NCBI GenBank assembly: GCA_963826525.1
Contig: CAWGXH010000004.1
Coordinates: 1,312,001 to 1,376,000, forward strand
DNA length: 64,000 nt
From: an uncultured Methanomicrobiaceae archaeon
GTDB taxonomy: Archaea > Halobacteriota > Methanomicrobia > Methanomicrobiales > Methanoculleaceae
Reading direction: 5' to 3'
Made by a program: the position numbers and the translations under genes. Below are positions 7,366 through 43,703 of this stretch, in pieces. The notes below the pieces were generated by a model that saw only the letters and a list, made by a program, of their open reading frames with translations, was not told where the DNA came from and ran no database searches. The first letter of the stretch is position 1, and every line of letters begins with the position of its first letter.

Positions 7366-7701
7366 ATGAAAGAGATTGAATATATGGCTCCCCCCGAGTA
7401 TGTGGTGGTCTTCTGCACGGCTCCGGTGGCCGATGCGAAGGCGATTGCAGAGGCACTGGTCGACGCACGGTTGGCGGCATGCGTGAATATCACCGAGGTC
7501 GATTCGTGCTTCCGGTGGAAAGGAGACGTCTGCAACGAGCCCGAGCAGCTCCTCATCATCAAGACCCGCTACGATCTGATCGATCCGCTGATAGCCCGGA
7601 TTCGCGGGATGCACAGTTATGAGCTCCCGGAGATCATCGCTCTCCCCATCGTGGGCGGGTATGCCCCGTATCTCGACTGGATAGGAGAGGAGGCGGGCTG
7701 A
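7366..7701 (+). CDS. cutA: Divalent-cation tolerance protein CutA
   Basis: LVDARLAACVNI, FRWKG, HSYELPEII; true start may be 7384. Confidence 0.92.
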   Translation: MKEIEYMAPPEYVVVFCTAPVADAKAIAEALVDARLAACVNITEVDSCFRWKGDVCNEPEQLLIIKTRYDLIDPLIARIRGMHSYELPEIIALPIVGGYAPYLDWIGEEAG

Positions 7702-8450
7702 TGGATCTCTCCTGCTTTACCGGCATTCAGGTGAAAGGGGATACGGCGGCGGAGATCCACGACGATGTCATCGTCGAGGATCACTTCCGCCTCTTCTTCA
7801 ACGGCCGGTACCTCACGACGCTGGTTGCAAGCCCCGACCGTCTCGAGGACCTCGGTGCGGGCTTTATCATCTGCGAGGGGCTCTCCGATGAGATAGGTTC
7901 GATGAACGTCACCGGGAACGATATCTACGTCTCCGCCGTCCCGAGAAAGGATATCAACCTCGAGATCGAATCATCAGGTGGATTCCGGGTCATGGGTGAG
8001 GCGAAGACGGTCGAATCGTCGATCGAGATAACCCCGGACAGTATCCATGCGGTGACGGGAGCGATCGAGTCCGAGACCTGGCGGCGCACGGGCGGCGTCC
8101 ACTGTTCGGTGCTCTTCTGCGGAGGCGACCTGATCACCCGCGCATGTGACGTCGGGCGGCACAATACCCTCGACAAGGTGGTCGGCTATGCCGCGCGGGG
8201 CGGGCTTGACCGGTCGCAGTGCATCGTCGGCTGTACCGGGAGGCAGCCCGCGGGGATGGTGGCGAAGGTTGCGAACGCCGGCATTCCCATCATCGTCTCC
8301 CGTGCTGCATCCACCGACCGGGGGATCCGGGCTGCAGACCGGGCGGGTATCACGCTCATCTGCTTCTCGCGGGGTGATCGCTTCACCATCTATACGCACC
8401 CAGAAAGGGTGCCGGACGTCCTCGAACGAATGAGAAAGGTGGTTATATGA
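7701..8450 (+). CDS. fdhD: Formate dehydrogenase accessory sulfurtransferase FdhD
   Basis: TGGVH, DVGRHNTLDKVVG, CTGRQPAGMV. Confidence 0.92.
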   Translation: MDLSCFTGIQVKGDTAAEIHDDVIVEDHFRLFFNGRYLTTLVASPDRLEDLGAGFIICEGLSDEIGSMNVTGNDIYVSAVPRKDINLEIESSGGFRVMGEAKTVESSIEITPDSIHAVTGAIESETWRRTGGVHCSVLFCGGDLITRACDVGRHNTLDKVVGYAARGGLDRSQCIVGCTGRQPAGMVAKVANAGIPIIVSRAASTDRGIRAADRAGITLICFSRGDRFTIYTHPERVPDVLERMRKVVI

Positions 8451-8929
8451 CGGAAGAGAATGTAGCCGGGAAGACGGCACTGATCCTGCTCGGGTGCCCG
8501 CAGGTGCCGGTACAGACGAGCGTTGCCCTGTACTGCGCATACCTGCTGAAGCAGAACGGCATCCGCCCGATCATTGCGGGGACGACTGCGGCGCGGAAAC
8601 TTCTGGAGGTTGCCGACCCGGAGCGGCACTACGCAGAGACGCTCGAGGATCTCGACACGGTCATCGGCGAGTTTGCGGAGAAGAAGCGGGACGTCGACTA
8701 CTGCTTCGTCTTCGCCCACAACGACTCCGGCATCGCCTACGCCGGCACCATGGCGTACCTGTCACGGGCGCGGCTCTACGTCCTGCTCTTCGGAGAGCAC
8801 CCGGAGGAGGTCGCTACGGCAATCACATTCCCCTGCGAACAGGTGACGGCAAAAGCTGTTCACAACCCTATGCCGATGAAGAGAAAGATCGATGAGGTGA
8901 TACGATGGGTGGCTGCCTCGAAGCAATGA
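8447..8929 (+). CDS. DUF1890-like methanogen protein
   Basis: LLGCPQVPVQ, ADPERHY, HNDSG, AVHNPMP. Confidence 0.75.
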   Translation: MTEENVAGKTALILLGCPQVPVQTSVALYCAYLLKQNGIRPIIAGTTAARKLLEVADPERHYAETLEDLDTVIGEFAEKKRDVDYCFVFAHNDSGIAYAGTMAYLSRARLYVLLFGEHPEEVATAITFPCEQVTAKAVHNPMPMKRKIDEVIRWVAASKQ

Positions 8930-9183
8930 AACCCGATATACTCCTTTCGCGCTGCTCGTTTATGGAGGCGCGGGAGTACGTCAAGAAGAATATCAGAGAA
9001 TACTATGAAGTGGAGCCGGGCTACAAGATCTTCGACATCCACCTGATCGGTGTTCCACCGCTGCTCGTCGGTATCGACGGAGACGATGTCATCTTCCCGT
9101 ATACCAAGCCCTGCCACGGAACCTTTGTCGTGAAGGTCCCCGGCGGAGATGAGATCGCCAGGCTGCGTGCCCGGCGACGATAA
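8905..9183 (+). CDS. DUF1894-like methanogen protein
   Basis: PGYKIFDIHLIGVPP, FPYTKPCHGTF. Confidence 0.75.
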   Translation: MGGCLEAMKPDILLSRCSFMEAREYVKKNIREYYEVEPGYKIFDIHLIGVPPLLVGIDGDDVIFPYTKPCHGTFVVKVPGGDEIARLRARRR

Positions 9184-9232
9184 CCCGCTTTTTCACCGGT
9201 GGCACCGGCCACCCATAGAGCAATGAGGGTCT

Positions 9233-9364
9233 ATGGAAGAATACTTTTTACGAGATCTGCAACCGATAGATTCCGGAACGACGGCCATCAGAGTCAGCGA
9301 TCTCTCTAATACTCGTGACGGGAGACGCGTCCTTGATGCCGTCTCGTGCGTGGGCGGCGGCTGA
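9233..9364 (+). pseudogene. Possible N-terminal fragment of an ABC ATPase
   Basis: My translation is MEEYF...TAIRVSDLSNTRDGRRVLDAVSCV, resembling an ABC ATPase start but stopping before Walker A. Confidence 0.25.
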
Positions 9365-9677
9365 TGGTGGTCTTTCCGGAAGACGGAAGTATAAATGATG
9401 TGACACGTGTACAGGTACAGGCAGTTCCCTCCCGGCAGTATCCCGCGTATACGCTGCAATTTCTCTCCGCATCGCGCGCATCGGGCTCCGAAAACGCGAG
9501 ATGACGGCTCGGAACGGCTTTGCGCGGGAGAACGCCGGGGAACATCCTGAATGTTCACACCGGTGGTGGCTTTGGCCGCCCCGGGAGCGGGGAGTGGCGA
9601 TCTCTGTCCTCTCCGTGCGTAGATAAACTCGTATATCGCAAAACCGGTTAATAGCACCTGGTTTGCAGGGTGAAAGC

Positions 9678-12371
9678 ATGGACGATATGGTGAAGGTACT
9701 TCTGATCGAAGATGATCCCGCGGACGCCCGGTATATTCGGGAGAAACTCTGTGAAAGGGGCAGCCGGTTTGAGGTGGTGGAGTCTGGCAGGCTCGCGGCC
9801 GGACTTGCCGCGCTCTCCCGCGATGCGTTCGATCTTGTCCTGCTCGACCTGATGCTCCCGGACAGCGGAGGGGTTGAGACGTTTCTTTTGCTTCGGAACC
9901 ATGCTCCGGATATCCCGGTCATCGTTCTGTCAGGCCACGACGATGCGAATCTCGCCGCCCACACCGTGCAGAGCGGGGTTCTCGACTGCCTGGTAAAAGA
10001 GAGGATCGAGCCTGAGTTCCTGACCCGCTTTCTCCGGTATGCGCGGGAGCGGAAGCGACTCGAAGATACAGTGCGGCATCTGGAAGCGCAGCATCGGCAC
10101 TACCTCGATACCCTGCACGAAGGTGTCATCGCGATCGATCTTCGGGGCGGGATCACGTATCTCAATCCCCGCATGGCAGAGTTCCTCGGTTATGCCCCGG
10201 GAGATCTCGTCGGCAGCCCGGTCGCGGCGCTCGGTGAATGCCTCCGGAGTCTGAACGACAGGGAGAGCGGGATGTTCGAGGCGCCGCTGCTCCGCGGTGA
10301 CGGATCTTCCGTCTGTGTGCGCATCACCACATCTCCGGTCACCGATCTTACCGGGAAACGCCTCGGTACCCGTGCTGCTGTCTTCGAGATACCCGCCCGG
10401 AGCGGTGCCAAAGAGGTGCTCCGGGGGGGCGAAGAGCAGTATCGTCTTCTGGTGGACGGCCTGAACGAGGGGATCTGGGTCATCGACGAGGCGGCAACGA
10501 CGACGTTCGTCAATCCGCGGATGGTCGAGATACTTGGCTATCCAGAGCGCGCGATTATCGGGAGATCCGCTTTTGATTTTGTCGACGAGGCCAGCCGCCC
10601 GGTTATAGCCGGGTCCCTGCGCCGCCGCAGAGCGGGCCACCGGGAGCAGTACGAATGCACCCTTATCAGGAGCGACGGAGCCCGGCGGACGGCTCTCATC
10701 ACGGCAGCACCGCTGTTCGATGGCGACGGCCTTTTCCGGGGCTCTATTGCCGGGGTCACCGACATCACCGAACGCAAGAACGCCGAACAGCAGATGCGGG
10801 GTATGGAGAAGGCCATCGCCTCCTCCGTCAGTCCCATCGCGTTTGCCGATCTCGACGGGAACCTGACCTACGTCAATCCGGCGTTTCTCGAGCTCTGGGG
10901 ATACGCCTCGCCGGACGAGGTGGTCGGAAGGGCGCTCTCTTCCTTCTGGGAGGATGCATCCGAGGCGGAAGAGGTCTCGGAAGCCGTCTGGGGCGAGGGG
11001 CAGTGGACGGGCGAGCTCGTTGGGAGGCGGCGGGACGGCTCGATCTTCGATGCGCAGATCTCGTCGAACACCGTAACCGACGACTTCGGAGAGCCTATTA
11101 TCATCATGGTCTCGCTGATCGATATCTCCGAGCGGAAACGTGCCGAGCGAGAGATCCTCACGCGGAACAAACAACTCATGGTCTTAAACCGGATCATCGG
11201 CTCGTCCGCATCGTCGCTTTCGCTCTCCGAACTCCTCGAGACCGGGATGCGGCGTACGCTCGAATTGATGGAGTTTGACATCGGCATCGTTTATATGCTC
11301 GATGCCGAACGAAAGCGGGGACTTCTCCAGTATCAGGAGAACATCCCCGCCTCCGCCCTCTCCCGGCACCGGATCGTCAAGGTGCATCACTGGCCGTTCA
11401 ACTTTATCTTCATCGCAGGCCAGGCACGGTATATCGAGAGCAGCAAGGGTCTCAGTTCCATCGAGTCGGCGATCCTCGAGGATCTCGGGGCCGTATCGCT
11501 TGCCTGTATCCCGCTCGTCGCCGAATCCGTTGTTGTCGGAGCACTCTATCTCGGGAGCAAGACCGAACCTGCATTGTCGCCGGAAGAGAAGACGCTGCTT
11601 GAGGCGATAGGAAAGGAGATCGGTTCCGGCATCCTGAAGGGGATGCTCCATAAGCGTCTCGAGGCCGCGAACCGCGAGGCGAACCTCTACCTCGATATCA
11701 TGACCCACGATATCAGGAACGCTGAGAACGTCTCCACGCTGTACGCCGATCTTCTCATCGATATGCTCGAGGGCGAGGCCGCGCTGTACGCGAAGAAACT
11801 TCAGGGGAGCATCAGAAAGAGTATCGGGATCCTGCGGAGCGTCTCCACGATCCGCCGGATTCACCAGACCACGGCTGAGCTCCAGCCCGTCGACCTCGAC
11901 CGGGTGATCCGTGAAGAGCGTCTGGCCTTCCCCGGCGTTTCGATAGCCTATGAAGGATTACCCCGGGAGGTCTGGGCCGACGACCTCATCGCCGAGGTCT
12001 TCGGAAACCTGATCGGAAACAGCATCAAGTTCGGCGGGTCGGACGTCAAGATCGCCGTCCGCGTCGATGAGTACGATGGGGAGAGTCTGCTCGTCTCGAT
12101 TGAGGATACCGGCCCGGGAGTGCCTGATGCGGTCAAAGAGACGATATTCCACCGATTTGAACGGGGGAGAAGTCATGGCAGCGGTGAAGGGCTCGGTCTC
12201 TATATTGCAAAGACACTCATCGAGCGTTACGGTGGGAAGGTCTGGGTCGACGACAGAGTGGAGGAACGGCCCGACCTCGGAGCAGCCTTCCGGTTCACCC
12301 TGCAGGAGGTCATGCCTGCGGGTGACGATGAGACGGTGGACGATCCGTGCCCGCCTGAGGACGAGGAGTAG
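9678..12371 (+). CDS. Hybrid sensor kinase: receiver - 3x PAS - GAF - HisKA/HATPase
   Basis: LLIEDD/LLDLMLPD receiver, PAS repeats, YLDIMTHDIRN H-box, NLIGNSIKF, EDTGPG, GEGLGL. Confidence 0.92.
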   Translation: MDDMVKVLLIEDDPADARYIREKLCERGSRFEVVESGRLAAGLAALSRDAFDLVLLDLMLPDSGGVETFLLLRNHAPDIPVIVLSGHDDANLAAHTVQSGVLDCLVKERIEPEFLTRFLRYARERKRLEDTVRHLEAQHRHYLDTLHEGVIAIDLRGGITYLNPRMAEFLGYAPGDLVGSPVAALGECLRSLNDRESGMFEAPLLRGDGSSVCVRITTSPVTDLTGKRLGTRAAVFEIPARSGAKEVLRGGEEQYRLLVDGLNEGIWVIDEAATTTFVNPRMVEILGYPERAIIGRSAFDFVDEASRPVIAGSLRRRRAGHREQYECTLIRSDGARRTALITAAPLFDGDGLFRGSIAGVTDITERKNAEQQMRGMEKAIASSVSPIAFADLDGNLTYVNPAFLELWGYASPDEVVGRALSSFWEDASEAEEVSEAVWGEGQWTGELVGRRRDGSIFDAQISSNTVTDDFGEPIIIMVSLIDISERKRAEREILTRNKQLMVLNRIIGSSASSLSLSELLETGMRRTLELMEFDIGIVYMLDAERKRGLLQYQENIPASALSRHRIVKVHHWPFNFIFIAGQARYIESSKGLSSIESAILEDLGAVSLACIPLVAESVVVGALYLGSKTEPALSPEEKTLLEAIGKEIGSGILKGMLHKRLEAANREANLYLDIMTHDIRNAENVSTLYADLLIDMLEGEAALYAKKLQGSIRKSIGILRSVSTIRRIHQTTAELQPVDLDRVIREERLAFPGVSIAYEGLPREVWADDLIAEVFGNLIGNSIKFGGSDVKIAVRVDEYDGESLLVSIEDTGPGVPDAVKETIFHRFERGRSHGSGEGLGLYIAKTLIERYGGKVWVDDRVEERPDLGAAFRFTLQEVMPAGDDETVDDPCPPEDEE

Positions 12372-32354: not shown

Positions 32355-32419
32355 TCCGTCGGTATTCAGTGATTAATATAATAATATTTTTATATTATTA
32401 CCCGGTAGTGCCTGACCCT

Positions 32420-33376
32420 ATGACTACGAAAGCATGGATGCCCCGTGTGGGCATCGTGGCATTGCTGGTGCTGATCTGCTGCACGGCGTGGGCCTGCGCC
32501 CAGCCGGTCGGCCCCGATCAGGCATCTGCTTCCGAACCGGCGGATCCGGGTGTGCTCAAAATTGCAACGACAACGAGTCTTGATAACACCGGACTGCTTG
32601 CTGCGCTGGAGCAGGTCTACGAGAACGAAACCGGCGTCGACCTCCAGTTCATCGCACAGGGGACGGGCCAGGCACTCGATACCGCCAGCAGGGGCGATGT
32701 CGACATGGTCATGGTGCACGCCCCGAGCCTTGAGGAACAGTTTATCAGCGATGGTTACGGTGTCAATCCCCGCTGCTTCGCCTACAACTACTTCATCATC
32801 GTCGGACCGCCGGATGACCCGGCAGGTATCCAGGGACTCTCTGCCGCGGATGCGTTCAAGCAGATATATCTCGCGGGCAGCAACGGAACCTCCGGTGTCG
32901 TCTTCGTCTCCCGCGGTGACAACTCCGGCACTAACACGAAAGAGAAGGAACTCTGGGAAACTGCCGGCTACAACTACACCAGCCAGGTTCAGGGTTCCAG
33001 CAACTGGTATCTGGAGTCCGGGAAGGGCATGGGCGACACGCTGGTGCTCGCCAACGAGAAGAACGGCTATACCCTCTCCGACGAAGGCACCTACCTCGCA
33101 TTCAAGTCGCAGCTGAACCTCGTGCCGCTCGTCAACCAGAGCCCGGAACTGCTGAACCGCTACAGCGCAATCCTGGTGAACCCGGAGAAGTACCCCACCA
33201 CGAATTATCCGGGAGCTGTTAACTTCACCAACTGGCTCATCACGAACGACACCAAGGAGTTCATCGGTAACTTCGGTGTGGCGGAGTACGGGCAGCCGCT
33301 CTTCACCCCGCTGTACGAGCCGCAGTGTGCAGAACCATCCTTCAACTGCACCTGCACCGGAAACATAACTGCATAA
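32420..33376 (+). CDS. tupA: Tungstate ABC substrate-binding protein, copy 1
   Basis: ATTTSLDNTGLL, GTGQA, VHAP, SRGDNSGT, YTLSD. Confidence 0.9.
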   Translation: MTTKAWMPRVGIVALLVLICCTAWACAQPVGPDQASASEPADPGVLKIATTTSLDNTGLLAALEQVYENETGVDLQFIAQGTGQALDTASRGDVDMVMVHAPSLEEQFISDGYGVNPRCFAYNYFIIVGPPDDPAGIQGLSAADAFKQIYLAGSNGTSGVVFVSRGDNSGTNTKEKELWETAGYNYTSQVQGSSNWYLESGKGMGDTLVLANEKNGYTLSDEGTYLAFKSQLNLVPLVNQSPELLNRYSAILVNPEKYPTTNYPGAVNFTNWLITNDTKEFIGNFGVAEYGQPLFTPLYEPQCAEPSFNCTCTGNITA

Positions 33377-33646
33377 CGACCACGGTACCCATCAATGAAC
33401 GCGGACAATTCCCGCCGCCTGTGCCGGGAGGTGCGGGCGGCGGAGAGATCCGCTTGCGGCCGGATACAGGCCCCTGTATGCTTTTTGCGCCCTCCGAATC
33501 CCGGAAATGTATCGCTATCGTCACGGAGCAGATCGGTGAGGTGTCGACCGGTATTGAGAGGAGAGAGTAGAGGAGATCTCCTTAACCCCAACCGATCAGT
33601 TGCAGTAAATTATATATGTGAGATTAATCTTTCCAGACAGCTGAGT

Positions 33647-34639
33647 ATGAGACCGAAACTGACGCTTCTTACGGCCGGTATTGTCGTACTCGCTGTCATC
33701 ACTGCTCTGTGTGCAGGGTGCACCGGGACAACACCGGGGAACGAAACTCCGAATGCGACGGCGAACGCGACACCCGTCGGGACTGCAGGAGCTGCCGGCG
33801 GCAGCAATGTCCTCCGTATTGCGACTACGACGAGCCTCGATAACACCGGACTGCTTACCGCGATGGAGCAGGTCTACGAGAACGAGACCGGTGTCGACCT
33901 CCAGTTCATCGCACAGGGGACGGGCCAATCCATCGATACCGCCACGCGCGGCGACGTGGATATGATCATGGTCCATGCGCCGGCGCTCGAGCAGGTATTC
34001 ATCGACCAGGGCTACGGCATCAATCCCCGCTGCTTCGCCTACAACTACTTCATCATCGTCGGGCCGCCCGCCGACCCGGCAGGGATCCAGGGACTGTCCG
34101 CCGCGGATGCGTTCAAGCAGATCTATCTCGCGGGCAGCAACGGAACCTCCGGTGTTGCCTTCGTCTCTCGCGGTGACAACTCCGGCACCCATACGAAGGA
34201 GAAGGAACTCTGGGCTCTTGCAGGCTACAACTACACCAGCCAGGTTCAGGGTTCCAGCAACTGGTATCTGGAGTCCGGGAAGGGCATGGGCGACACGCTG
34301 GTGCTCGCCAATGAGAAGAACGGCTATACCCTCTCCGATGAAGGCACCTACCTCGCATTCAAGTCGCAGCTGAACCTCGTGCCGCTCGTCAACCAGAGTC
34401 CGGAACTGCTGAACCGCTACAGCGCGATCGCAGTGAACCCGGAGAAGTATCCGGATACGAACATCCAGGGTGCGGATGAGTTCATCAACTGGATAATCTC
34501 GGACGAAGGGAAGCAGTTGATCGGTAATTACGGTGTTGAGGAGTACGGAAAGGCGCTCTTCACTCCGCTGTACGCACCCGAGTGCACGCAGCCGCCGTTC
34601 AACTGCACCTGTGCGGAACCGATCCCGATACCTGCATAA
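33647..34639 (+). CDS. tupA: Tungstate ABC substrate-binding lipoprotein, copy 2
   Basis: Lipobox CAGC; ATTTSLDNTGLL, SRGDNSGTH; near-identical to copy 1 at offset 1257 nt. Confidence 0.92.
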   Translation: MRPKLTLLTAGIVVLAVITALCAGCTGTTPGNETPNATANATPVGTAGAAGGSNVLRIATTTSLDNTGLLTAMEQVYENETGVDLQFIAQGTGQSIDTATRGDVDMIMVHAPALEQVFIDQGYGINPRCFAYNYFIIVGPPADPAGIQGLSAADAFKQIYLAGSNGTSGVAFVSRGDNSGTHTKEKELWALAGYNYTSQVQGSSNWYLESGKGMGDTLVLANEKNGYTLSDEGTYLAFKSQLNLVPLVNQSPELLNRYSAIAVNPEKYPDTNIQGADEFINWIISDEGKQLIGNYGVEEYGKALFTPLYAPECTQPPFNCTCAEPIPIPA

Positions 34640-34738: not shown

Positions 34739-35432
34739 ATCGCAGAGAATGAGATCATCCAGGGAATCATCGAGGCGATCAACCTCATCATCACCCTCAA
34801 CCCGAGCGTCGTACAGATCACCATCCTGTCCCTCTACATATCCCTCACCGCCACCCTCATCGCCGCATCCGTCGCCATGCCGCTCGGGGCTTTTATCTAC
34901 TTTAAGGAGTTCCGGGGAAAGCAGGCGGTCATCAGCACGCTCCAGACACTGTATGCACTTCCCACGGTTATCGTCGGGCTGCTGATGTTTCTGCTCCTCT
35001 CCAACGTGGGGCCGTTAGGGTTTCTGCGCCTCCTCTACACGCCGACCGGCATGATCGTGGCGCAGACGGTTCTCATCATTCCTCTGCTCACCGGGTTGAC
35101 GGTCACGGCGCTCTCGGGCATAGACCGGGAGAAGCGCTATACCATTATCAGCTCTTGGCGCCAGCTCGTTCCAGTCCATCACTACCATCCTCCTGGAGGC
35201 GAAATTCGCGATTATAGGCGCGGTGGTGCTCGGCTTCGGGCGGGCGATCTCCGAGGTGGGCACGGTGATGATCGTCGGCGGTAACATCCGCGGCTACACC
35301 CGGGTGCTCACCACCGCGATCGCGCTCAACACCTCCATGGCGAACTACTCGATGTCGATCGCGCTCGGCATCATTCTGCTGGGGGTTGCGCTCGGGGTGA
35401 ACATTGCCCTCTCCCTGGTACAACGCAGGTGA
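34739..35432 (+). CDS. tupB: Tungstate ABC permease (frameshift near 35150; start uncertain)
   Basis: NEIIQGIIEAINLII..., YALPTVIVGL, FGRAISEVG..MIVGGNIRGYTRVLTTAI. Confidence 0.85.
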
Positions 35433-35437
35433 ACCGG

Positions 35438-36545
35438 ATGATCATCGAAGCACATGAACTCACCAAGGCATACAACTCCCGCGAAGTGCTCCACGGGATT
35501 ACCATTGACGTCAGTGAAGGGGAGACCCTCGGGATCATCGGACCGAGCGGTTCGGGAAAGAGCACCCTGCTCCGGCTTCTGGACCTGATCGAGCCGCCGA
35601 CCTCGGGGGATCTCAGGCTCTTCGGGGTGAACGTGACGGATAAGCATCCCCGGATAGAGATCCGGCGGCGGATGGGCATGCTCTTCCAGAAGCCGATCGT
35701 CTTCAACTCCAGCGTCTATAACAATGTCGCCATGGGGATGAAGTATCGGAAGGTGCCGAGAAACGAGATCGACCGGCGCGTCACAGGAGGCGCTTGAGGC
35801 GGTGGGTCTCTCCCAGTACATCAGGAGCAAAGCGCCCGATCTCTCCGGCGGCGAGCAGCAGCGGGTGGCGTTATCAAGGGTGATCGTCACCGAGCCGGAG
35901 ATCCTCTTCCTCGACGAGCCGACGGCAAACCTCGACCCGACTTCCACGGCCACCATCGAGGAGATAGTGCTGCGGCTGAACCGTGAGCTCGGAACCACTA
36001 TCGTCATAAACACCCACGACATGCTCCAGGGTCAGCGGCTCTCGCAGCGGGTCGGGGTCATGATCGCGGGTGAGATCATGCAGGTTGGAAAACCGAGAGA
36101 GATCTTCCACAATCCGAATAACCTTCAGATCGCACGGTTTGTGGGGGTCGACAACATCCTCTCCGGCAGGATCGTCCCGGGCGGTCAGAATGGCCTTACG
36201 GTGGTCGAGGTGCAGGGAAAACGGATCGAGGTTGCAGAGCAGCCTCCGGGCAGGAGGAATGCCGGGGTGAAGGTCGTCTTCCGGGGAGAGGACGTCACGA
36301 TCGGAACCGGGGAACCGGCCACGACGAGTGCCCGGAACGTCTTTTCGGGTTTCATTACAGGTATCGAATCGACCGCGCCGTTCGTCGCCGTGACGATTGA
36401 CTGCGGATTTCCGGTCACGGCGCTCGTGACCGCCCGTTCCGCGGATGCTATGGACTTAGAGGCCAAAAAAAGAGTCTGGGTCTCCTTCAAGGCCAGCGCC
36501 CTGCACCTCATCCCGGAGGAGGCGGATGCCGGCGCCGGGGGATAG
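35438..36545 (+). CDS. tupC: Tungstate ABC ATPase with TOBE domain (frameshift near 35785)
   Basis: GPSGSGKS, LSGGEQQRV, LDEPT, TSARNVF. Confidence 0.85.
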
Positions 36546-36559
36546 TATCATGACGATAC

Positions 36560-37396
36560 ATGCAAGATGTGTCAAGCAGGAGTATGACTATGAGTCCGAG
36601 ACGAGAGATGGAGTCGAAGCTGAAAGGAGAATCGCTGGTGAGGCGCGGGTTGATGCGGCGGTATGAAGGCCGGCCGCAGATCCGGATCGCTCCCGAACTT
36701 AACGTCGTCAAGATCGGCGGGCATGGCATCATCGATTACGGCGCTCCGGTTGTCCAGCCGCTGGTTGATGAGATCGGGGAGCTCTCGAAGACGTATAAGA
36801 TGCTCGTCGTGACCGGCGGCGGCGTGCGGGTGCGGCACATCCTCGACATCGGCCTTGATCTCGGGATGCCGACGGGCGTCCTTGCGGAGCTGACGAGCAA
36901 GATCAGCGAGCAGAATGCGATCATGATGGCGGTGCTGCTCTCCCGGTACAGCGGCATGCGGATCCATACCGCCGACCTCCTCGATATTCCCATGCTGCTG
37001 AAGATGGGCATGCTGCCGGTGACGCACGGGACGCCCCCCTACGGGCTCTACGAGTACCCGCCCGATATCGGGATGATCCCGCCGCACCGCACCGATACCG
37101 GAGCGCTCCTCGCGGCAGAGGTGGTCGGGGCGAAGAGCTGTATTCTCGTCAAGAACGTCGACGGCCTCTACACGGAAAACCCCTTTGTGAACTCCGATGC
37201 GGAGCTGATCAGGGATATCTCGGCACGGGAACTTCTCGATATGCAGATGGAGGATCTTGTCCTCGAGGATAAAGCCGTCGAGCTGCTGCTCCATACCAAG
37301 AACGTGAAGAAAGTGCAGATCATCAACGGGCACAAACCGGGTCTGCTGACGGCCGCGCTCCGTGGGGAGAACGTCGGCACGATCATCAGGGCGTAA
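36560..37396 (+). CDS. Molybdenum storage protein (MosA/MosB-like, amino-acid-kinase fold)
   Basis: VVKIGGH.IIDYG, PLVDEI, TGGGVRVRH, GMPTGVLA, EQNA, PPHRTDTG, VKNVDGLYTENP, GENVGTII, as recalled for Azotobacter MoSto; start may be 36584 or 36590. Confidence 0.8.
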   Translation: MQDVSSRSMTMSPRREMESKLKGESLVRRGLMRRYEGRPQIRIAPELNVVKIGGHGIIDYGAPVVQPLVDEIGELSKTYKMLVVTGGGVRVRHILDIGLDLGMPTGVLAELTSKISEQNAIMMAVLLSRYSGMRIHTADLLDIPMLLKMGMLPVTHGTPPYGLYEYPPDIGMIPPHRTDTGALLAAEVVGAKSCILVKNVDGLYTENPFVNSDAELIRDISARELLDMQMEDLVLEDKAVELLLHTKNVKKVQIINGHKPGLLTAALRGENVGTIIRA

Positions 37397-37505: not shown

Positions 37506-37554
37506 TCAAGGTGAATATAGAAACTATATATTGGTGTCAGTTCATGGTTTTTTC

Positions 37555-38630
37555 ATGAACAATATGCGCATATGTGCACTTCTGTGCCTGTGCCTCTGCG
37601 CCGCAGTCATGATCTGCGGCTGCACCGGCACGTCGACCGAGACCCCCGAGTCGGGAAACGCCACTGCCACTCCGACGTCTGCAGAGCAGATTCAGGTCAA
37701 GGTCTTCCTTGCCGGAAGCCTCGCCGGGCCGTTTGAGAAGATGAAAGCGGCATTTGAAGCAGAGTTCCCGAACACCGAAGTGCTCCTCGAACCCGCAGGG
37801 AGCGTCGACACCATCAAGAAGGTGACGGAGAACGGCAAGCCCGCTGATGTCGTTGCATCCGCCGACTATGCACTCATTCCGCAGATGATGGTTCCCGATC
37901 ACGCCGACTGGTATCTCACCTTCGCCAAGAACACGATGGTGATCACCTACACGAACGAGAGCAAGTACGCTGATGAGATCACCGCGGATAACTGGTATGA
38001 TGTCCTTAACCGCGACGGCGTCAAGTGGGCGTTCTCGGACCCGAACTCCGACCCCTGCGGCTACCGCACGCCGATGGTGATCCAGTCTCGCCGAGGCCTG
38101 CTACAACAACGACCAGATCTTCGAGACACTTCTCGGGGAGCACAGCGGCATCACCGCTACCGAAGAGAACGGCACCTATACCATCCACGCCACCGAACCG
38201 AACCCCGACACCACAACCCTGACCATCCGCCCGAAGAGCGTCGAGCTCGGTGCAGATGGTGCAGTCCGGCGGCCTTGACTATGCGTGGGAGTACCGGAGC
38301 GTCGCGGTGCAGAACGACCTGCAGTTCGTGGAGCTTCCGGCAGCGATCGACCTCTCCTCCGTCGAGTATGCCGACACCTATGCGACCGTCCAGATCGAGT
38401 GCAAGAAGGGCAACGGCACAACCATCTATGTGGGCGCCCCCATCGTCTACGGCGTGACCGTCCCCGCGATCGCCGAGCACCCCGAGATGGGTATCGAGTT
38501 TGTCAAGATGCTGATCGGTCCCACCGGGCAGGCGATCCTGACCGAAGACGGACAGCCCCCGATCGTCCCGGCCAGTGGCTATGGCAACGTGTCCGCGCAG
38601 CTGAACTCCCTGGTTGCCATGAAGGCCTAA
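37555..38630 (+). CDS. wtpA: WtpA-type tungstate/molybdate-binding lipoprotein (+1 frameshifts near 38086 and 38249)
   Basis: ICGC lipobox, AGSL, GSV, ASADY, SDPNSDPCGYR, RPKS, WEYRSVA, PIVYGVTVP. Confidence 0.88.
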
Positions 38631-38697: not shown

Positions 38698-39582
38698 ATG
38701 AAGATGGCAACACTCCTGAAAGATCTCTTTCCGCCTGGTGAGGACATGGCCGGATGGTTTGACAGATCCGGCTGGTCTCAACGCAGGATCGACTGGTGCA
38801 TCCTCGGGTTCTGTCTCCTCGGGTCGGTCATCGTCGGCATCACGGTGCTCGCGCTTGCAAATATCTCGATCACCGAATTTGCCAACCCCGGGCATCTGTT
38901 CGAGGTGGCCACGAGTGCGGAGGTCATCGGATCGATCCTGCTCACCTTCGGGGCTGGTCTGAACGCTGTCCTGCTGCTCATCCTCTTCGGCACCCCGCTC
39001 GCCTACGTGCTCGCCCGGTCGCAGCCATCGCGCACAAAGGAGGTGGTGGAGAGCATCGTCGATATCCCGCTCATCCTGCCCCACACGGTGGCCGGTATTC
39101 TGGTGTACCTCCTCTTCATGCGAAGAGGATGGCTCGGAGCACCGCTTGCGGACGTCGGGCTCTCCTTTGAGGACGCCTACCCCGGTACTGTCGTTGCGAT
39201 GCTCTTCGTGGCATCCCCGTTCTACATCAACACGATGCGGGAAGGTTTTCTGAAAGTGCCGGTACACCTCGAGAACGTTGCCCGGACACTCGGGGCGACG
39301 AGGTTCCAGACCTTCTTCCGGGTGACGCTGCCCTTAAGTTTCCGCCACATGTACAACGGTTCGATCCTTGCCTGGGGCCGTGCAATCGGTGAGTTTGCTG
39401 CCGTTATCATGATCGCATACTACCCGTTCATCGCCTCCACGCTGATCTACTACTCGTTTACAACGGACGGTATCAGGACGAGCAGAAGCATCGCGTTCAC
39501 CGTCATCGTCGTCAGTTTTGTGGTCTTCCTGGTGCTCCGGCGCCTGACGCGCTATATGGGGAGGTACGATGATCGAGTTTGA
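38698..39582 (+). CDS. wtpB: Wtp/Mod-type ABC permease
   Basis: DIPLILPHTVAG, LENVARTLGA, WGRAIGEFAAV; start may be 38746. Confidence 0.85.
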   Translation: MKMATLLKDLFPPGEDMAGWFDRSGWSQRRIDWCILGFCLLGSVIVGITVLALANISITEFANPGHLFEVATSAEVIGSILLTFGAGLNAVLLLILFGTPLAYVLARSQPSRTKEVVESIVDIPLILPHTVAGILVYLLFMRRGWLGAPLADVGLSFEDAYPGTVVAMLFVASPFYINTMREGFLKVPVHLENVARTLGATRFQTFFRVTLPLSFRHMYNGSILAWGRAIGEFAAVIMIAYYPFIASTLIYYSFTTDGIRTSRSIAFTVIVVSFVVFLVLRRLTRYMGRYDDRV

Positions 39583-40654
39583 CCGCGTATCGCTGGCGCT
39601 CGGGCAGTTTGCTCTGAAGGAAGTCAGCCTGACCATCAACGAGGGCGACTACTACTTCATCGTCGGGCCGTCCGGTGCCGGGAAGACGGTGATGCTCGAG
39701 GCGATCGCCGGGCTCCACCGCCCGGAGCGCGGGCGCGTGCTCCTCCGCGGCGAGGATATCACTGCTACGCTGCCGGAAGAGCGGCGTATCGGGCTTGTGT
39801 ACCAGGACTACTCGCTCTTCCCGCACATGACCGTCTACGGCAATATCGCCTTCGGCCTGCGTCTCCAGGGGCGTTCGAAGGAGGAGGTCTCCCGTGACGT
39901 CGACGACCTTCTGCAGCGGTTCGGCATCGAACACCTGCAGGATCGCTACCCGCTGACGCTCTCAGGAGGGGAACAGCAGCGGGTGGCGCTCGCCCGTTCC
40001 ATCGCGGTGAAGCCCGATATCCTGCTGCTCGACGAACCGCTCTCGGCGCTCGATCCGGTCACCCGGGAGAAGTTCATGCAGGACCTTGCGGCTCTCCACC
40101 GCGAGCAGCACCTGACGATCGTCCAGGTGAGCCACGAGCGGAGCGAAGCGCGGCGGCTCGGCACCCGGATGGCGGTGATCATCGACGGCAGGCTCGTCGC
40201 CGAAGACCGTGTCAGCGCGGTGCTGAACGCCCCGGGCCGCCCGGACGTCGCCAGGTTCGTCGGCATCGAGAACGTCCTCGAGGGCAGCGTGATCGAGAAC
40301 GCCGGTGGCCTCGCCGTGATCGAGGTCTCTGGCCTCCGGTTCGAAGCGGTGACGGAGGCCCGACCCGGGACCTGCGTCTGCCTCTGCATCAGGGGCCAGG
40401 ACGTCGGCATCGCACTCTCCGGGAACCCGGCATCGAGCGCCCGGAATGTCTTTTCCGGAACCGTGACCGGCCTTGTCGGCAACGGGCCGCTCGTCGACGT
40501 CAGGGTCGACTGCGGTGTGGCAGTGACCGCGCTGCTGACGGAGAAGTCGGTCGAAGACCTTCGGCTAAATCCCGGATCAGGGGTCGTTCTGCTCATCAAG
40601 GCGAGCGCCATTCATGTAATTGCCGGAGACCCCCCCCGGAAGATCGGTGCATAA
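39569..40654 (+). CDS. wtpC: Wtp-type ABC ATPase with TOBE domain
   Basis: GPSGAGKT, LSGGEQQR, LLDEPLSALD, SSARNVF. Confidence 0.87.
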   Translation: MIEFDRVSLALGQFALKEVSLTINEGDYYFIVGPSGAGKTVMLEAIAGLHRPERGRVLLRGEDITATLPEERRIGLVYQDYSLFPHMTVYGNIAFGLRLQGRSKEEVSRDVDDLLQRFGIEHLQDRYPLTLSGGEQQRVALARSIAVKPDILLLDEPLSALDPVTREKFMQDLAALHREQHLTIVQVSHERSEARRLGTRMAVIIDGRLVAEDRVSAVLNAPGRPDVARFVGIENVLEGSVIENAGGLAVIEVSGLRFEAVTEARPGTCVCLCIRGQDVGIALSGNPASSARNVFSGTVTGLVGNGPLVDVRVDCGVAVTALLTEKSVEDLRLNPGSGVVLLIKASAIHVIAGDPPRKIGA

Positions 40655-40683: not shown

Positions 40684-41145
40684 TCAATCAGAAACAGCGT
40701 TGTGTTCGTCTTCGCCTTCGGTATCCGGGCTTTGCGGCCCGTCGAGCGAAGGTCTGCCCGTGGGAGCGTGATCCTGGTATCTGCCGCGCGTGGTCTGATC
40801 CGGTTTTATCTTCATCTTTCTGAGGAGTTCGGCGAGCATTCCGACGCCCAGTACCTCCTCGGCTGCATCGGCATACGTCGTCTCCATCATCCGGAGGAGG
40901 CAGCGCGTCCCCTCCGGGGTGGTCGATATCCCGACTCGCTCAACCCGGCGGATCAGTCCGTCCTGCTCCATCGCGGCATAGGCGGGAAGGACGTAGTAGT
41001 GCGGAACGTCGAGGTACTCGGCGAGCTTCCGCGTTGTCGGGAGGCGTATCGAGACGCCGCCCGGGGTAATACTGACGGTCATGCATCGATCTGCAAAGAG
41101 GAGGATCCGTAATGCCGCATCGAATATGTCATCCTGGTCGGACAT
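40684..41145 (-). CDS. GntR-like winged-helix protein
   Basis: RLPTTRKLAEYLDV...AYAAMEQDGLIRRVERVG resembles a GntR HTH. Confidence 0.65.
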   Translation of the reverse strand: MSDQDDIFDAALRILLFADRCMTVSITPGGVSIRLPTTRKLAEYLDVPHYYVLPAYAAMEQDGLIRRVERVGISTTPEGTRCLLRMMETTYADAAEEVLGVGMLAELLRKMKIKPDQTTRGRYQDHAPTGRPSLDGPQSPDTEGEDEHNAVSD

Positions 41146-41201: not shown

Positions 41202-41429
41202 TCACTCCTTCTTCTTCTCGCCCCGCTCTTCTTCGGCCATCTCTTCGAGGTAGATCATCTCGGCACCGACGTCCTGCGCGATCTGCTCAAGTTCGGTCTT
41301 CCGAAAGTGCGTCCCCTCGATCTTCAGGTGTTTATCGTCTCCCTTCTCACCGGTTACGGCGACGACGCGGAAACGCGGCTGCTTTACGCCGGTTCCGACC
41401 TTCTGGCGCTCACGTACGTAGATCTTCAT
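41202..41429 (-). CDS. Small hypothetical protein (75 aa)
   Basis: Natural-looking composition; GAGGTGA RBS-like sequence upstream on the minus strand. Confidence 0.7.
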   Translation of the reverse strand: MKIYVRERQKVGTGVKQPRFRVVAVTGEKGDDKHLKIEGTHFRKTELEQIAQDVGAEMIYLEEMAEEERGEKKKE

Positions 41430-41608
41430 ACTCTTTTCACCTCTGATACAGTTGGTATACCACCTGGTATATTTCCTGAAATCTTAATACTTTCGCCGGA
41501 TCCCACCGGTGTCAAGAGACCGGAATCACGCATCTTTGCGGTTGCCCGGCTGAAATAAGATGTATCGATGGTATTCTCAGGCACCGGGGGGTTCTGTCGG
41601 TCTTGTTT

Positions 41609-41630: not shown

Positions 41631-41689
41631 CTGCGAGGCTTCTTCACCGAAAAGAGCCGATGATAGAGAAAGGCTCCGGAGCAGAGACC

Positions 41690-42388
41690 ATGACAGTATA
41701 TCTCGGTATCGACGACACCGACACCCCCGAATCCCGCGGAACCGGGCTGCTTGCCCGGAAGATTGCGGCAAAACTTGCCGGGAGCTGCCGAATAGCCGGT
41801 GTGACCCGGCACCAGCTCTATGTTCATGACGATATCCCATACACGTCCCAGAACAGCTGCGCCGTCATCCACATCGAGGAGACGGAGAACGGATCCCTCC
41901 GGGAGATCCTCGGCGCTGCCCGCGAGATGATCCTCGCAGACTTCGTCGAAGGGAGCGACCCCGGTATCTGTATCGCTTCTGGGGATCAGGTAGCCGGGCA
42001 TTTGCTCTCATTCGGAATGCGGGCGAAGAGCGCCGTGGTGACGGAGGACGAGGCGCGGCACCTCGCCCGGGACACAGGCATCACGCTTGAAGGGCTCGGC
42101 GGCACGAACGGCGGCATCATCGGAGCGCTCGCCGGGGTCGGGCTCGCCGCCTCCCGGAACGACGGCAGGTTCGTCGTTCGCGGGCGCACACGGGATCTCA
42201 AAGGCTGCCAGACTGTTGCGACGCTCCTCGGCGGCGGCGTCGACAGCGTCATGACTCCGGACGGCATGCTCGTCACCGACGGTGTCGTCGAGATCCGGAA
42301 GTTCCCAAAACCCGCTCTCCGGCAGGGGCGGGCGGTGCTCTTCGTCGAGGATGCCGGCGGCGTCTACCGCGACCTCGTGGTCGGGTAG
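41690..42388 (+). CDS. Stand-alone TiaS N-terminal-like (GIDDTD) protein
   Basis: YLGIDDTD...GTG, RHQL...IPYTSQNS, EGSDPG, GIIGALAGVG; too short for full TiaS. Confidence 0.7.
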   Translation: MTVYLGIDDTDTPESRGTGLLARKIAAKLAGSCRIAGVTRHQLYVHDDIPYTSQNSCAVIHIEETENGSLREILGAAREMILADFVEGSDPGICIASGDQVAGHLLSFGMRAKSAVVTEDEARHLARDTGITLEGLGGTNGGIIGALAGVGLAASRNDGRFVVRGRTRDLKGCQTVATLLGGGVDSVMTPDGMLVTDGVVEIRKFPKPALRQGRAVLFVEDAGGVYRDLVVG

Positions 42389-42715: not shown

Positions 42716-43703
42716 TCACCCGAGCGGCTGCGGCCACCCGTCCCTGCCCTCCGCGAAGGCCTCCAGCATAAAGGCGACGAACGAGGCGGCCTCTTCCGGG
42801 TGCTCCGCCGCCGTCGGGACGGTCACGGCATAGACGATAGGCGCTCCCGTCCTGAGATTTCCGATGGAGCCGAACCGCTGAAACCCGAGCTGCACCGCCA
42901 CGTTCCGGTAGCGATCGGCGTAGTCCGCGCTCGAGAGATCGATCTCGGGCGGGAGATCGATGGAGGAGAGGCCATGGGCGTCGGCCACGCTCCGGTACTC
43001 GAAGGCGTAATCGATACCGCCCGCATCGAGGAGCGAGAGGAGGTAGATGGAACCATCCCGGATCTGCACCTTCCCGTCCGACGGGCGCAGCACCTCGGGG
43101 AGCGTGATCGTGACAGTCCCGCCCGCCCGGTTCACGACCGGCCGGGGGTCGAGGTGATCGGCGATGATTCCGTCAAAGAGTGCCCTGTTCCCGTAGTACT
43201 CTTCGGCGAGTGCCGTCACCATCAGCGCCCGGTAGCCGCATGCGTCGAGCATCGGGTTTGAAAACCCCACCCGCACGTCCGGCCGGGCAAGCACGGCATA
43301 CCAGTTCTCCGCGGTGATCTCATCGGCATGCAGGCTCTTTTCGGTGTAGGCGATCACCATCTCGTTCGTGGCGAACGATGTGTAGGTATCGGTGTAATTG
43401 CCGCCCCCGTCTTCCATCGGGCGGAACATCATCTCCGGGATCAGGGACTCGTCAGCGACAGCGACGACGTCGATAGCCCGGTGCAGATCGGTGACCTGCC
43501 TGACCGCCTGGATGCTCCCGTGCCCCTCGACCCGGACGTCGATTTCGGGGTGCAGGTTCTCGTAGGCTGCCTCGATCTCCTCCATGGGCAGGAGCAGGCT
43601 GCCTGCCGGTACGACGCGGAGCTCCCGTGGTTTCGCCCTCTCCCGTGCAGCCCGCACTGAAGATCAGCAGGACGGCGCAGAGCGCAAGTAGCATCGCCTT
43701 CAT
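42716..43703 (-). CDS. wtpA: Second, orphan WtpA-type binding lipoprotein (frameshift near 43640)
   Basis: SAGC lipobox, PAGSL, HGSIQ, AVAD, SNPMLDACGYR, FEYRSVA, PIVYAVTVP. Confidence 0.85.

Follow-up and report, generated by a model that had tools for sequence, protein, structure and literature searches.

A candidate single-subunit tungsten or molybdenum store of the MoSto family in Methanomicrobiales, and the small protein that accompanies it

The closest described relative of the system reported here is the molybdenum storage protein (MoSto) of Azotobacter vinelandii, an (alpha-beta)3 hetero-hexamer of MosA and MosB (PDB 2OGX, 4F6T, and 6GU5) that is encoded by a mosB-mosA tandem. Excerpts of two papers describe this protein as storing molybdenum (Mo) or tungsten (W) as clusters and as needing ATP for loading, with approximately 70–100 atoms stored per MoSto-type protein (PMC6448029, PMC4504029); in the excerpted text of the former, which appeared in 2019, MoSto is presented as unique and without known homologues. 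Here we describe a MoSto-like gene in an uncultured Methanomicrobiaceae archaeon, in a 64,000-nucleotide stretch of contig CAWGXH010000004.1 (assembly GCA_963826525.1, positions 1,312,001 to 1,376,000), referred to below as the window. The protein resembles the Azotobacter proteins in its full-length homology, kinase-fold motifs, N-terminal arm, MosB-like lysine and indels, and in its genomic link to Mo/W uptake. Unlike them, it is encoded by a single gene, belongs to a separate monophyletic archaeal clade whose members are strict anaerobes with no positive link to nitrogenase, and is always accompanied in the genome by a small gene, orf75, that the canonical loci lack.

Uridylate (UMP) kinases (PyrH) share the amino-acid-kinase fold with MoSto and are homo-hexamers, whereas MoSto is alpha3beta3. 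The TOBE-domain Mo/W binders (Mop, ModG, and Tub of Eubacterium limosum) are comparable in the role proposed below, in that they hold tungstate or molybdate inside the cell beside uptake genes, as described in an excerpt of PMC11980592, but they have an unrelated fold, bind few oxyanions, and use no ATP. A full-text search that did not extend to most subscription journals turned up no publication about MoSto relatives that are archaeal or encoded by a single gene, about the storage of tungsten by methanogens, or about the way in which these organisms buffer their W and Mo supply.

The MoSto-like gene lies within an intact open reading frame (ORF) of 278 aa at 36560–37396 on the plus strand, identified from the window sequence and its ORF list, which we divide as follows.

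36590–37396, plus strand: MoSto-like gene, encoding a MosB-like single subunit of 268 aa with the amino-acid-kinase fold
36560–36589, plus strand: upstream in-frame ATG segment, probably an untranslated leader containing an AGGAG ribosome-binding site at 36578–36582

The start codon is likely at 36590 rather than 36560, because the AGGAG motif is 7 nt 5' of the ATG at 36590 and the homologues are 268 aa long, with starts that match the equivalent of this position. A preliminary description, made from the sequence alone, had placed the gene start within about 50 nt of the tupC stop, and this is correct for either start: the tupC-like gene ends at 36545, so that the gap is 44 nt if translation begins at 36590 and 14 nt if it begins at 36560. 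The 44-nt gap contains only the ribosome-binding site, an AT-rich spacer of 134 nt follows the MoSto-like gene, and the gene is probably co-transcribed with the tup operon. The single copy that had been noted in the window has no second in the assembly, which comprises 16 contigs and is 87.6% complete; the next-best match there (E 0.05) is pyrH. Among named relatives the nearest is a protein of Methanoculleus taiwanensis, with 94% identity. It had been expected that annotation pipelines would label such a protein uridylate kinase; this is so at NCBI, but JGI already uses the name molybdenum storage protein.

The protein is a true member of the MoSto family, and PyrH is excluded. When the 278-aa ORF was compared with PDB chains using phmmer, it matched MosB with an E value of 2.8e-58 (200.8 bits, query residues 15–278 against chain residues 6–269) and MosA with 1.6e-49 (172.1 bits), so that the likeness to both proteins along the whole length is as first described, whereas the best UMP kinase match (7.5e-11) is confined to the C-terminal third, residues 173–276. 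The sole Pfam match is AA_kinase (3e-25). The best NCBIfam match is pyrH_arch (TIGR02076), at 65.7 bits and below the cut-off of 158.05, and the score against TIGR02075 is 42.2 bits compared with a cut-off of 243.9; the true pyrH of this genome is elsewhere, at G000:C3:622147-622809, and scores 258.5 bits. In an alignment of 34 family sequences, the window protein keeps all ten invariant columns and all 28 nearly invariant ones, with the motifs KIGG, TGGG, RxRH, RTD, and VKxxDG..DP together with PPY. It also has an N-terminal arm of 38 residues (approximately 35–40 in the family) before the KIGG strand, which occupies residues 41–44 of 268, whereas PyrH proteins lack the arm and begin at the equivalent of this strand. 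Two candidate identities were thus rejected: a TOBE-type binder, because Pfam gives AA_kinase and no TOBE domain (PF03459), such domains being found instead in the neighbouring TupC and WtpC; and a PyrH paralogue, given the sub-threshold score, the separate pyrH, and the division of the tree described next.

At an E value of 1e-30 the MoSto family, a small one, comprises 52 clusters (50% identity) among 1.84 billion representatives, with P0147 as the MosA orthologue (2e-141 to 2OGX_A) and P0127 as the MosB orthologue (1e-94). One member, P0134, is 732 aa long and carries its MoSto-like domain at about residues 465–729, behind a long N-terminal part that appears hydrophobic and glycine-rich; it may be a membrane-anchored or transporter-fused form.

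We constructed a careful maximum-likelihood tree from 61 hand-picked rows, with fragments left out: 31 rows are archaeal members of the family, 18 represent the family elsewhere, and 12 archaeal pyrH sequences serve as the outgroup. The MoSto family separates from the UMP kinases with 100/100 support, on a branch of 2.4 substitutions per site on both sides. The archaeal MoSto-like sequences are monophyletic (96/100), and their sister group consists of the bacterial clusters P0124 and P0125 (89/97). MosA joins P0143 (98/86) and MosB falls in a basal polytomy; a quick tree placed MosA and MosB in one subclade (SH-aLRT, the approximate likelihood ratio test, 86), but this grouping is absent from the careful tree. 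Because the careful tree leaves MosA and MosB in the basal polytomy, we make no claim about where the alpha/beta duplication falls with respect to the archaeal clade. The window protein is orthologous to none of MosA, MosB, and PyrH, and the phylogeny proposed in the preliminary description does not show the clustering with PyrH that would have counted against it. Within the archaeal clade the window protein (genus g1, family f1) clusters with genomes of families f4, f15, and f17 and stands apart from its own family's numerous g2 genomes, with which it shares 64–69% identity; the placement suggests either transfer or old paralogy within the phylum.

The bacterial sister proteins of the P0124 cluster are uncharacterised; they are likewise encoded by one gene per locus and are 45–52% identical to the archaeal proteins. 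We compared residues at informative positions among distinct sequences of four groups: 58 archaeal, 79 bacterial single-gene, 74 MosA, and 51 MosB.

MosA Glu129 position (cluster ligand): MosA, Glu 99%; MosB, Asp commonest at 53%; bacterial single-gene, Gly commonest at 43%; archaeal, His 79%
MosA His140 position (cluster ligand): MosA, His 100%; MosB, Tyr 78%; bacterial single-gene, Tyr 96%; archaeal, Leu 83%
MosA His156 position (cluster ligand): MosA, His 99%; MosB, Gly commonest at 57%; bacterial single-gene, Asp commonest at 56%; archaeal, Gly 97%
Lysine of VK(N/D)xDG: MosA, Glu 74/74; MosB, Lys 51/51; bacterial single-gene, Lys 79/79; archaeal, Lys 58/58
MosB Met149 position: MosA, Phe; MosB, Met; bacterial single-gene, Met 79/79; archaeal, Thr 58/58

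Two MosA-specific indels are absent from the MosB, bacterial single-gene, and archaeal groups alike. The archaeal clade differs from all the others in substitutions next to the nucleotide motifs, where GGQS is replaced by GGHG, DRG by DYG, KD by KN, and DPK by NPF; the P0124-cluster proteins retain the Met149, DRG, and DPK that are changed in archaea. In 2019 Brunle et al. reportedly proposed MosB as the subunit that attacks ATP with molybdate, and Met149 as a gate. The histidine on the three-fold axis of MosA is His140, and an excerpt of PMC4504029 gives Glu129 and His156 of MosA as binding clusters covalently. By these residues the single-gene proteins look like competent MosB-type subunits, to which the archaeal clade has added further changes.

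Of several functional readings, the one that we favour, with moderate confidence, is that the protein is a MoSto-type, ATP-dependent W/Mo store made from one MosB-like subunit and serving pterin enzymes. By analogy with its hexameric relatives, a single kind of subunit would form a hexameric cage; ATP would drive tungstate and/or molybdate, imported by Tup, Wtp, or Mod transporters encoded nearby, to its interior, where the metal would be held as metal-oxide clusters. Tungsten and molybdenum are scarce, and in methanogens both formate oxidation and the first step of CO2 reduction depend on them. The store would presumably supply the pterin enzymes of the methanogen, namely the paralogues of formylmethanofuran dehydrogenase B (FwdB), an AOR-family enzyme, and formate dehydrogenases, rather than nitrogenase specifically; the genome encodes three FwdB/FmdB paralogues and one AOR-family protein. 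The MoSto-like protein would work with, or under the control of, orf75.

Several observations weigh against this reading. The covalent cluster ligands of MosA are not kept in the archaeal clade, which has His, Leu, and Gly at the three ligand positions, although MosB is also without them. All 58 archaeal sequences have threonine at the Met149 position, and the changes of charged residues near the nucleotide motifs mean that the chemistry may differ. The tupB, tupC, and wtpA genes carry frameshifts in this assembly.

The gene is widespread in the order. Among 151 Methanomicrobiales genomes, 121 of them of high quality, 96 carry it (78 of the high-quality set), and 87 of the 96 carriers have one match. 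We found no second kinase-fold subunit in the genome studied here, a search for which had been suggested at the outset, and one gene is also the rule among carriers. The departures are seven genomes of genus g6 with two adjacent full-length copies, G056 with three matches of which one has a stop, and G108, whose two fragments are at the ends of contigs. The duplication in g6 is specific to that lineage (100/99 support). In every two-copy g6 genome the tandem consists of two alternating pairs, the whole orf75 and MoSto-like module having been duplicated (L048 and L049, both at 7683–9953), which parallels, independently, the duplication behind the alpha and beta subunits of Azotobacter. Across a phylum-wide sample of 401 genomes the gene is present in 65, of which 18 are outside the order (f10, f14, f15, and f17), and it was not found in genomes of f7 (0/52) or f8 (0/64).

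The new element is the strict co-occurrence of the MoSto-like gene with orf75, a candidate partner or dedicated regulator.

41202–41429, minus strand: orf75, 75 aa, basic, of no known family; candidate partner or dedicated regulator

Across genomes orf75 is approximately 60–75 aa long and has no Pfam, NCBIfam, or PDB-sequence match, its Atlas matches being unnamed clusters only. The listed archaeal homologues are 58–89% identical, with Arg6, Arg8, Arg43, Glu46, and Ala51 invariant and His41 nearly so. All 114 genomes with a MoSto-like gene (96 Methanomicrobiales and 18 elsewhere in the phylum) have orf75. Within the order it is found in 98 of the 151 genomes, and of the two cases without a MoSto-like match, one is a genome of 62% completeness and the other concerns a contig end of 2.5 kb; phylum-wide it is found in 71 of 401 genomes, covering all 65 carriers, and the six extras all belong to genus g37. 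These six (G154, G174, G193, G223, G258, and G276; loci L262–L267) keep orf75 without an intact MoSto-like gene. Three of their six orf75 copies contain in-frame stops (TAG or TAA), and that of G258 adjoins a C-terminal MoSto-like remnant.

Two scans of overlapping genomes show that orf75 and the MoSto-like gene are divergent neighbours at 39 of 58 loci, with a median spacer of 95 nt; in genus g17, Desulfobacterota, and Syntrophomonas, orf75 is directly upstream on the same strand. In the lineage studied here, the MoSto-like gene has left its usual neighbour orf75 and now stands last in the tup operon, while orf75, orf242, and a palindrome described below stayed together. The association extends to bacteria. 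Eighty sister-clade loci, found with the single protein P0124 in Chloroflexota, Acidobacteriota, Syntrophomonas, and Desulfobacterota, each have one MoSto-like gene, and 72 of them (73 by ORF search) have orf75. In contrast, among 80 canonical loci found with the MosA orthologue, many of them short contigs with 32 longer than 6 kb, 74 have the mosB-mosA tandem and none has orf75 or orf242.

These patterns bear on the alternative that survives best, namely that the store has two components, with orf75 as an obligate partner (a lid, plug, assembly factor, or metal hand-over protein) in a hetero-oligomer rather than the homo-oligomer of the preliminary description, which had itself named an obligate partner subunit as evidence against its proposal. 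We regard this as a serious possibility that nonetheless falls short of being probable. It would account for the presence of orf75 in every carrier, for the close divergent or same-strand arrangements, for the alternating pairs in g6, and for the division between sister-clade and mosB-mosA loci; the g37 genomes, in which the MoSto-like gene is lost and half of the orf75 copies contain stops, are also in its favour, and the invariant arginines, a lysine, and the histidine of orf75 could suit the binding of a polyanion. However, three g37 genomes have an intact orf75 without a MoSto-like gene, and the monomer model of orf75 is poor (pLDDT, the predicted local distance difference test score, 64). 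Fusion of orf75 to the kinase-fold protein was not found either, the two longer proteins recovered both being without PF00696. Moreover, palindromes at the orf75 promoter, in archaea and in a related form in Chloroflexota, fit a DNA-binding autoregulator equally well.

The window contains one such palindrome, together with two further genes next to orf75.

41457–41470, no strand assigned: palindrome ATACCACCTGGTAT, approximately 28 nt upstream of the orf75 start, candidate operator
41660–42388, plus strand: orf242; ~155 residues at its N terminus are similar to the TCKD kinase domain of TiaS and include an invariant DDTD
40684–41145, minus strand (longest ORF reaches 41205): orf173, ~120–150 aa, with a winged-helix-like region, candidate regulator

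A near-copy, ATACAGTTGGTAT, precedes the palindrome at 41457–41470, and a search with TACCANNTGGTA, allowing at most one mismatch, gave a single match in 64 kb where 0.39 were expected. The form ATACCA-N2-TGGTAT, often doubled, is present in most divergent spacers between orf75 and the MoSto-like gene (L022–L040 and L083–L089), in several archaeal families. In a set of 20 archaeal loci with 8-kb flanks, picked to span all six families, 11 of its 16 matches are within 90 nt of orf75 (in ten loci, at 15–85 nt), and shuffles give about 8 matches in all compared with the 16 observed. At the bacterial loci a second motif, GGG[CT]ATAT[AG]CCC, occurs once each in 18 of 80, compared with 0.26 expected, and is approximately 26–50 nt upstream of orf75 where positions were compared, with the copy in L151 lying far from it. 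The archaeal and bacterial palindromes share the half-site GGTAT; none of this kind was seen in the Desulfobacterota loci. In Chloroflexota-type loci (L102–L132, for example L102:3958 and L118:7722) the bacterial palindrome is contained within TT(T/A)TGGG..CCCA(A/T)AA, directly 3' of a TTGACA/TATAAT-like promoter and upstream of orf75. We found no molybdenum cofactor (Moco) riboswitch or other Rfam element near the gene in the window, and 11 bacterial loci contained no Rfam element beyond one unrelated cobalamin riboswitch.

It is accordingly conceivable, and we put it forward tentatively, that orf75 is a dedicated Mo/W-responsive transcription regulator and that the kinase-fold protein acts alone as a homo-hexamer. 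The protein is small and basic, its promoter region carries the archaeal palindrome in half of the 20 loci and in the window, and the bacterial motif far exceeds expectation; the half-site is common to both motifs, and the only genes that the loci have in common are orf75, the MoSto-like gene, and orf242. On the other hand, no known DNA-binding family or fold is recognised in orf75, the Desulfobacterota loci are without the palindrome, and the archaeal loci contain a separate winged-helix candidate in orf173. This latter gene is present at 14 of the 20 archaeal and none of the 80 bacterial loci, the P0124-cluster loci being without it, and has a weak profile match (E 0.011) to 2x4h, a winged helix-turn-helix protein.

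The third gene of the conserved module is orf242, which is found at 46 of the 80 bacterial and 5 of the 20 archaeal loci. Its profile matches 3u02 (6e-13) and the TiaS chains (~1e-10) in the PDB. It is a stand-alone TCKD relative whose nearest NCBIfam entry is 'methanogenesis marker 11', and it belongs to the module in archaea as well as in bacteria.

A different function for the kinase-fold protein, which we think unlikely, is that of an ATP-dependent oxyanion-activating enzyme, similar to a tungstate or molybdate kinase, that passes the metal to cofactor synthesis or to orf75 or orf242 and builds no large clusters. The retention of the MosB-like catalytic signature without the covalent cluster ligands would fit such an activity, as would the position of the archaeal-specific substitutions beside the nucleotide motifs and the presence in the same module of orf242, a TiaS-TCKD-like, ATP-using protein. 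However, the protein is 43–49% identical to cage-forming relatives over its full length, N-terminal arm included, MosB itself is without the MosA ligands, and there is no evidence for an alternative substrate.

The metal that the favoured W/Mo store would hold is best considered together with the transporter genes around it, which are arranged in the window in the order tupA, tupA, tupB, tupC, MoSto-like gene, wtpA, wtpB, wtpC, orf173 (minus strand), orf75 (minus), orf242 (plus), and wtpA (minus).

32369–33376, plus strand: tupA-like copy 1; sole NCBIfam match TupA at 204.7 bits, short of the 400-bit equivalog cut-off; Pfam PBP_like_2
33395–34639, plus strand: tupA-like copy 2; NCBIfam TupA 212 bits over residues 136–391; true start probably later
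34877–35432, plus strand: tupB-like permease in two frames, with one extra nucleotide near 35151 compared with G110; both pieces match NCBIfam ABC_perm1 and TupB
35429–36545, plus strand: tupC-like ATP-binding cassette (ABC) ATPase with TOBE domain, in two frames, with a 1-nt insertion near 35784 relative to G110; Pfam ABC_tran and TOBE; the name tupC rests on context
37531–38630, plus strand: wtpA, broken by one extra nucleotide at each of two places (near 38086 and 38250) compared with G110; both pieces match NCBIfam WtpA
38698–40654, plus strand: overlapping wtpB (38698–39582) and wtpC (39569–40654); best NCBIfam matches WtpB 241.7 bits and WtpC 363.2 bits, each below the equivalog cut-off; WtpC has a TOBE domain
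42716–43657, minus strand: second, intact wtpA; TIGR03730 WtpA 333.1 bits, cut-off 242.75

The tandem tupA-like pair before tupB is shared with the sister genome G110. The single-base insertions at 35151, 35784, 38086, and 38250 are outside long homopolymers, and the nifD of this genome (G000:C4:163052-164615) is also in two frames; these defects could be errors of assembly, or the transporters could be genuinely decaying. Four DNA sequencing runs were listed as containing this DNA, each with a share of at most 0.09, and no RNA run was listed.

A W/Mo-type ABC transporter gene is within 8 kb at 17 of the 20 archaeal loci: TupA-like at 11, WtpA-like at 9, and a third type, beside orf173, at 9. 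An example of the third type is L051, with a modA above cut-off and a permease matching 'Mo_ABC_porter'. The position directly 3' of tupC is characteristic of this lineage (G110 and G027) and not of the family. Among bacteria, the relative in a Desulfofustis isolate adjoins an MFS_MOT1 molybdate transporter and nifB/EN-like genes. Because the neighbours include tup, wtp, and mod types as well as a MOT1 relative, the genomic link is to the handling of Mo/W oxyanions in general. The preference for tungsten that had been proposed from the window, where the gene is between tup and wtp genes, remains a conjecture: nine of the 20 archaeal loci have the third transporter type, which in L051 is a modA/Mo type, and one bacterial locus has MOT1.

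An Azotobacter-style molybdenum store for nitrogenase is improbable. The genome does have a nifD, split in the assembly, and the Desulfofustis relative is beside nifB/EN-like genes and a molybdate transporter, but here the MoSto-like gene is directly flanked by tup and wtp genes, and it is found in 6 of 23 genomes with nifD (7 of 24 with G000) compared with 89 of 127 without it. In this count 23 of the 151 genomes have nifD above the cut-off and G000 was added as the split case, while four whose nifD is partial or scores too low were placed in the group without it; the genomes are related, and the comparison is descriptive only. The NCBI name, a second uridylate kinase, is hardly credible, for although the AA_kinase fold and the best NCBIfam match, pyrH_arch, would suit it, that match reaches less than half of the cut-off, the true pyrH is elsewhere, the tree split has full support and long branches on both sides, and PyrH sequences have no N-terminal arm.

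We also advance, with considerable reserve, a wider reading of the same pattern. A MosB-like subunit with orf75 and often orf242 may represent a second form of MoSto that looks older and is much more widespread, in strict anaerobes both archaeal (Methanomicrobiales and other Halobacteriota) and bacterial (Chloroflexota, Desulfobacterota, and syntrophs). It would be an ATP-driven W/Mo store for the pterin enzymes of methanogenesis and anaerobic respiration, rather than for nitrogenase, in which orf75 stands in for MosA as a new structural or metal hand-over component.

The finding would correct a widespread mis-annotation as uridylate kinase, and it brings in orf75, an unstudied small protein that strictly co-occurs with the MoSto-like gene. 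It also makes two questions testable, namely whether one subunit is enough for a cage and which metal is held in it. The single-gene, MosB-like form, which about two thirds of the Methanomicrobiales sampled possess, would offer a simpler system for ATP-driven deposition of metal clusters.

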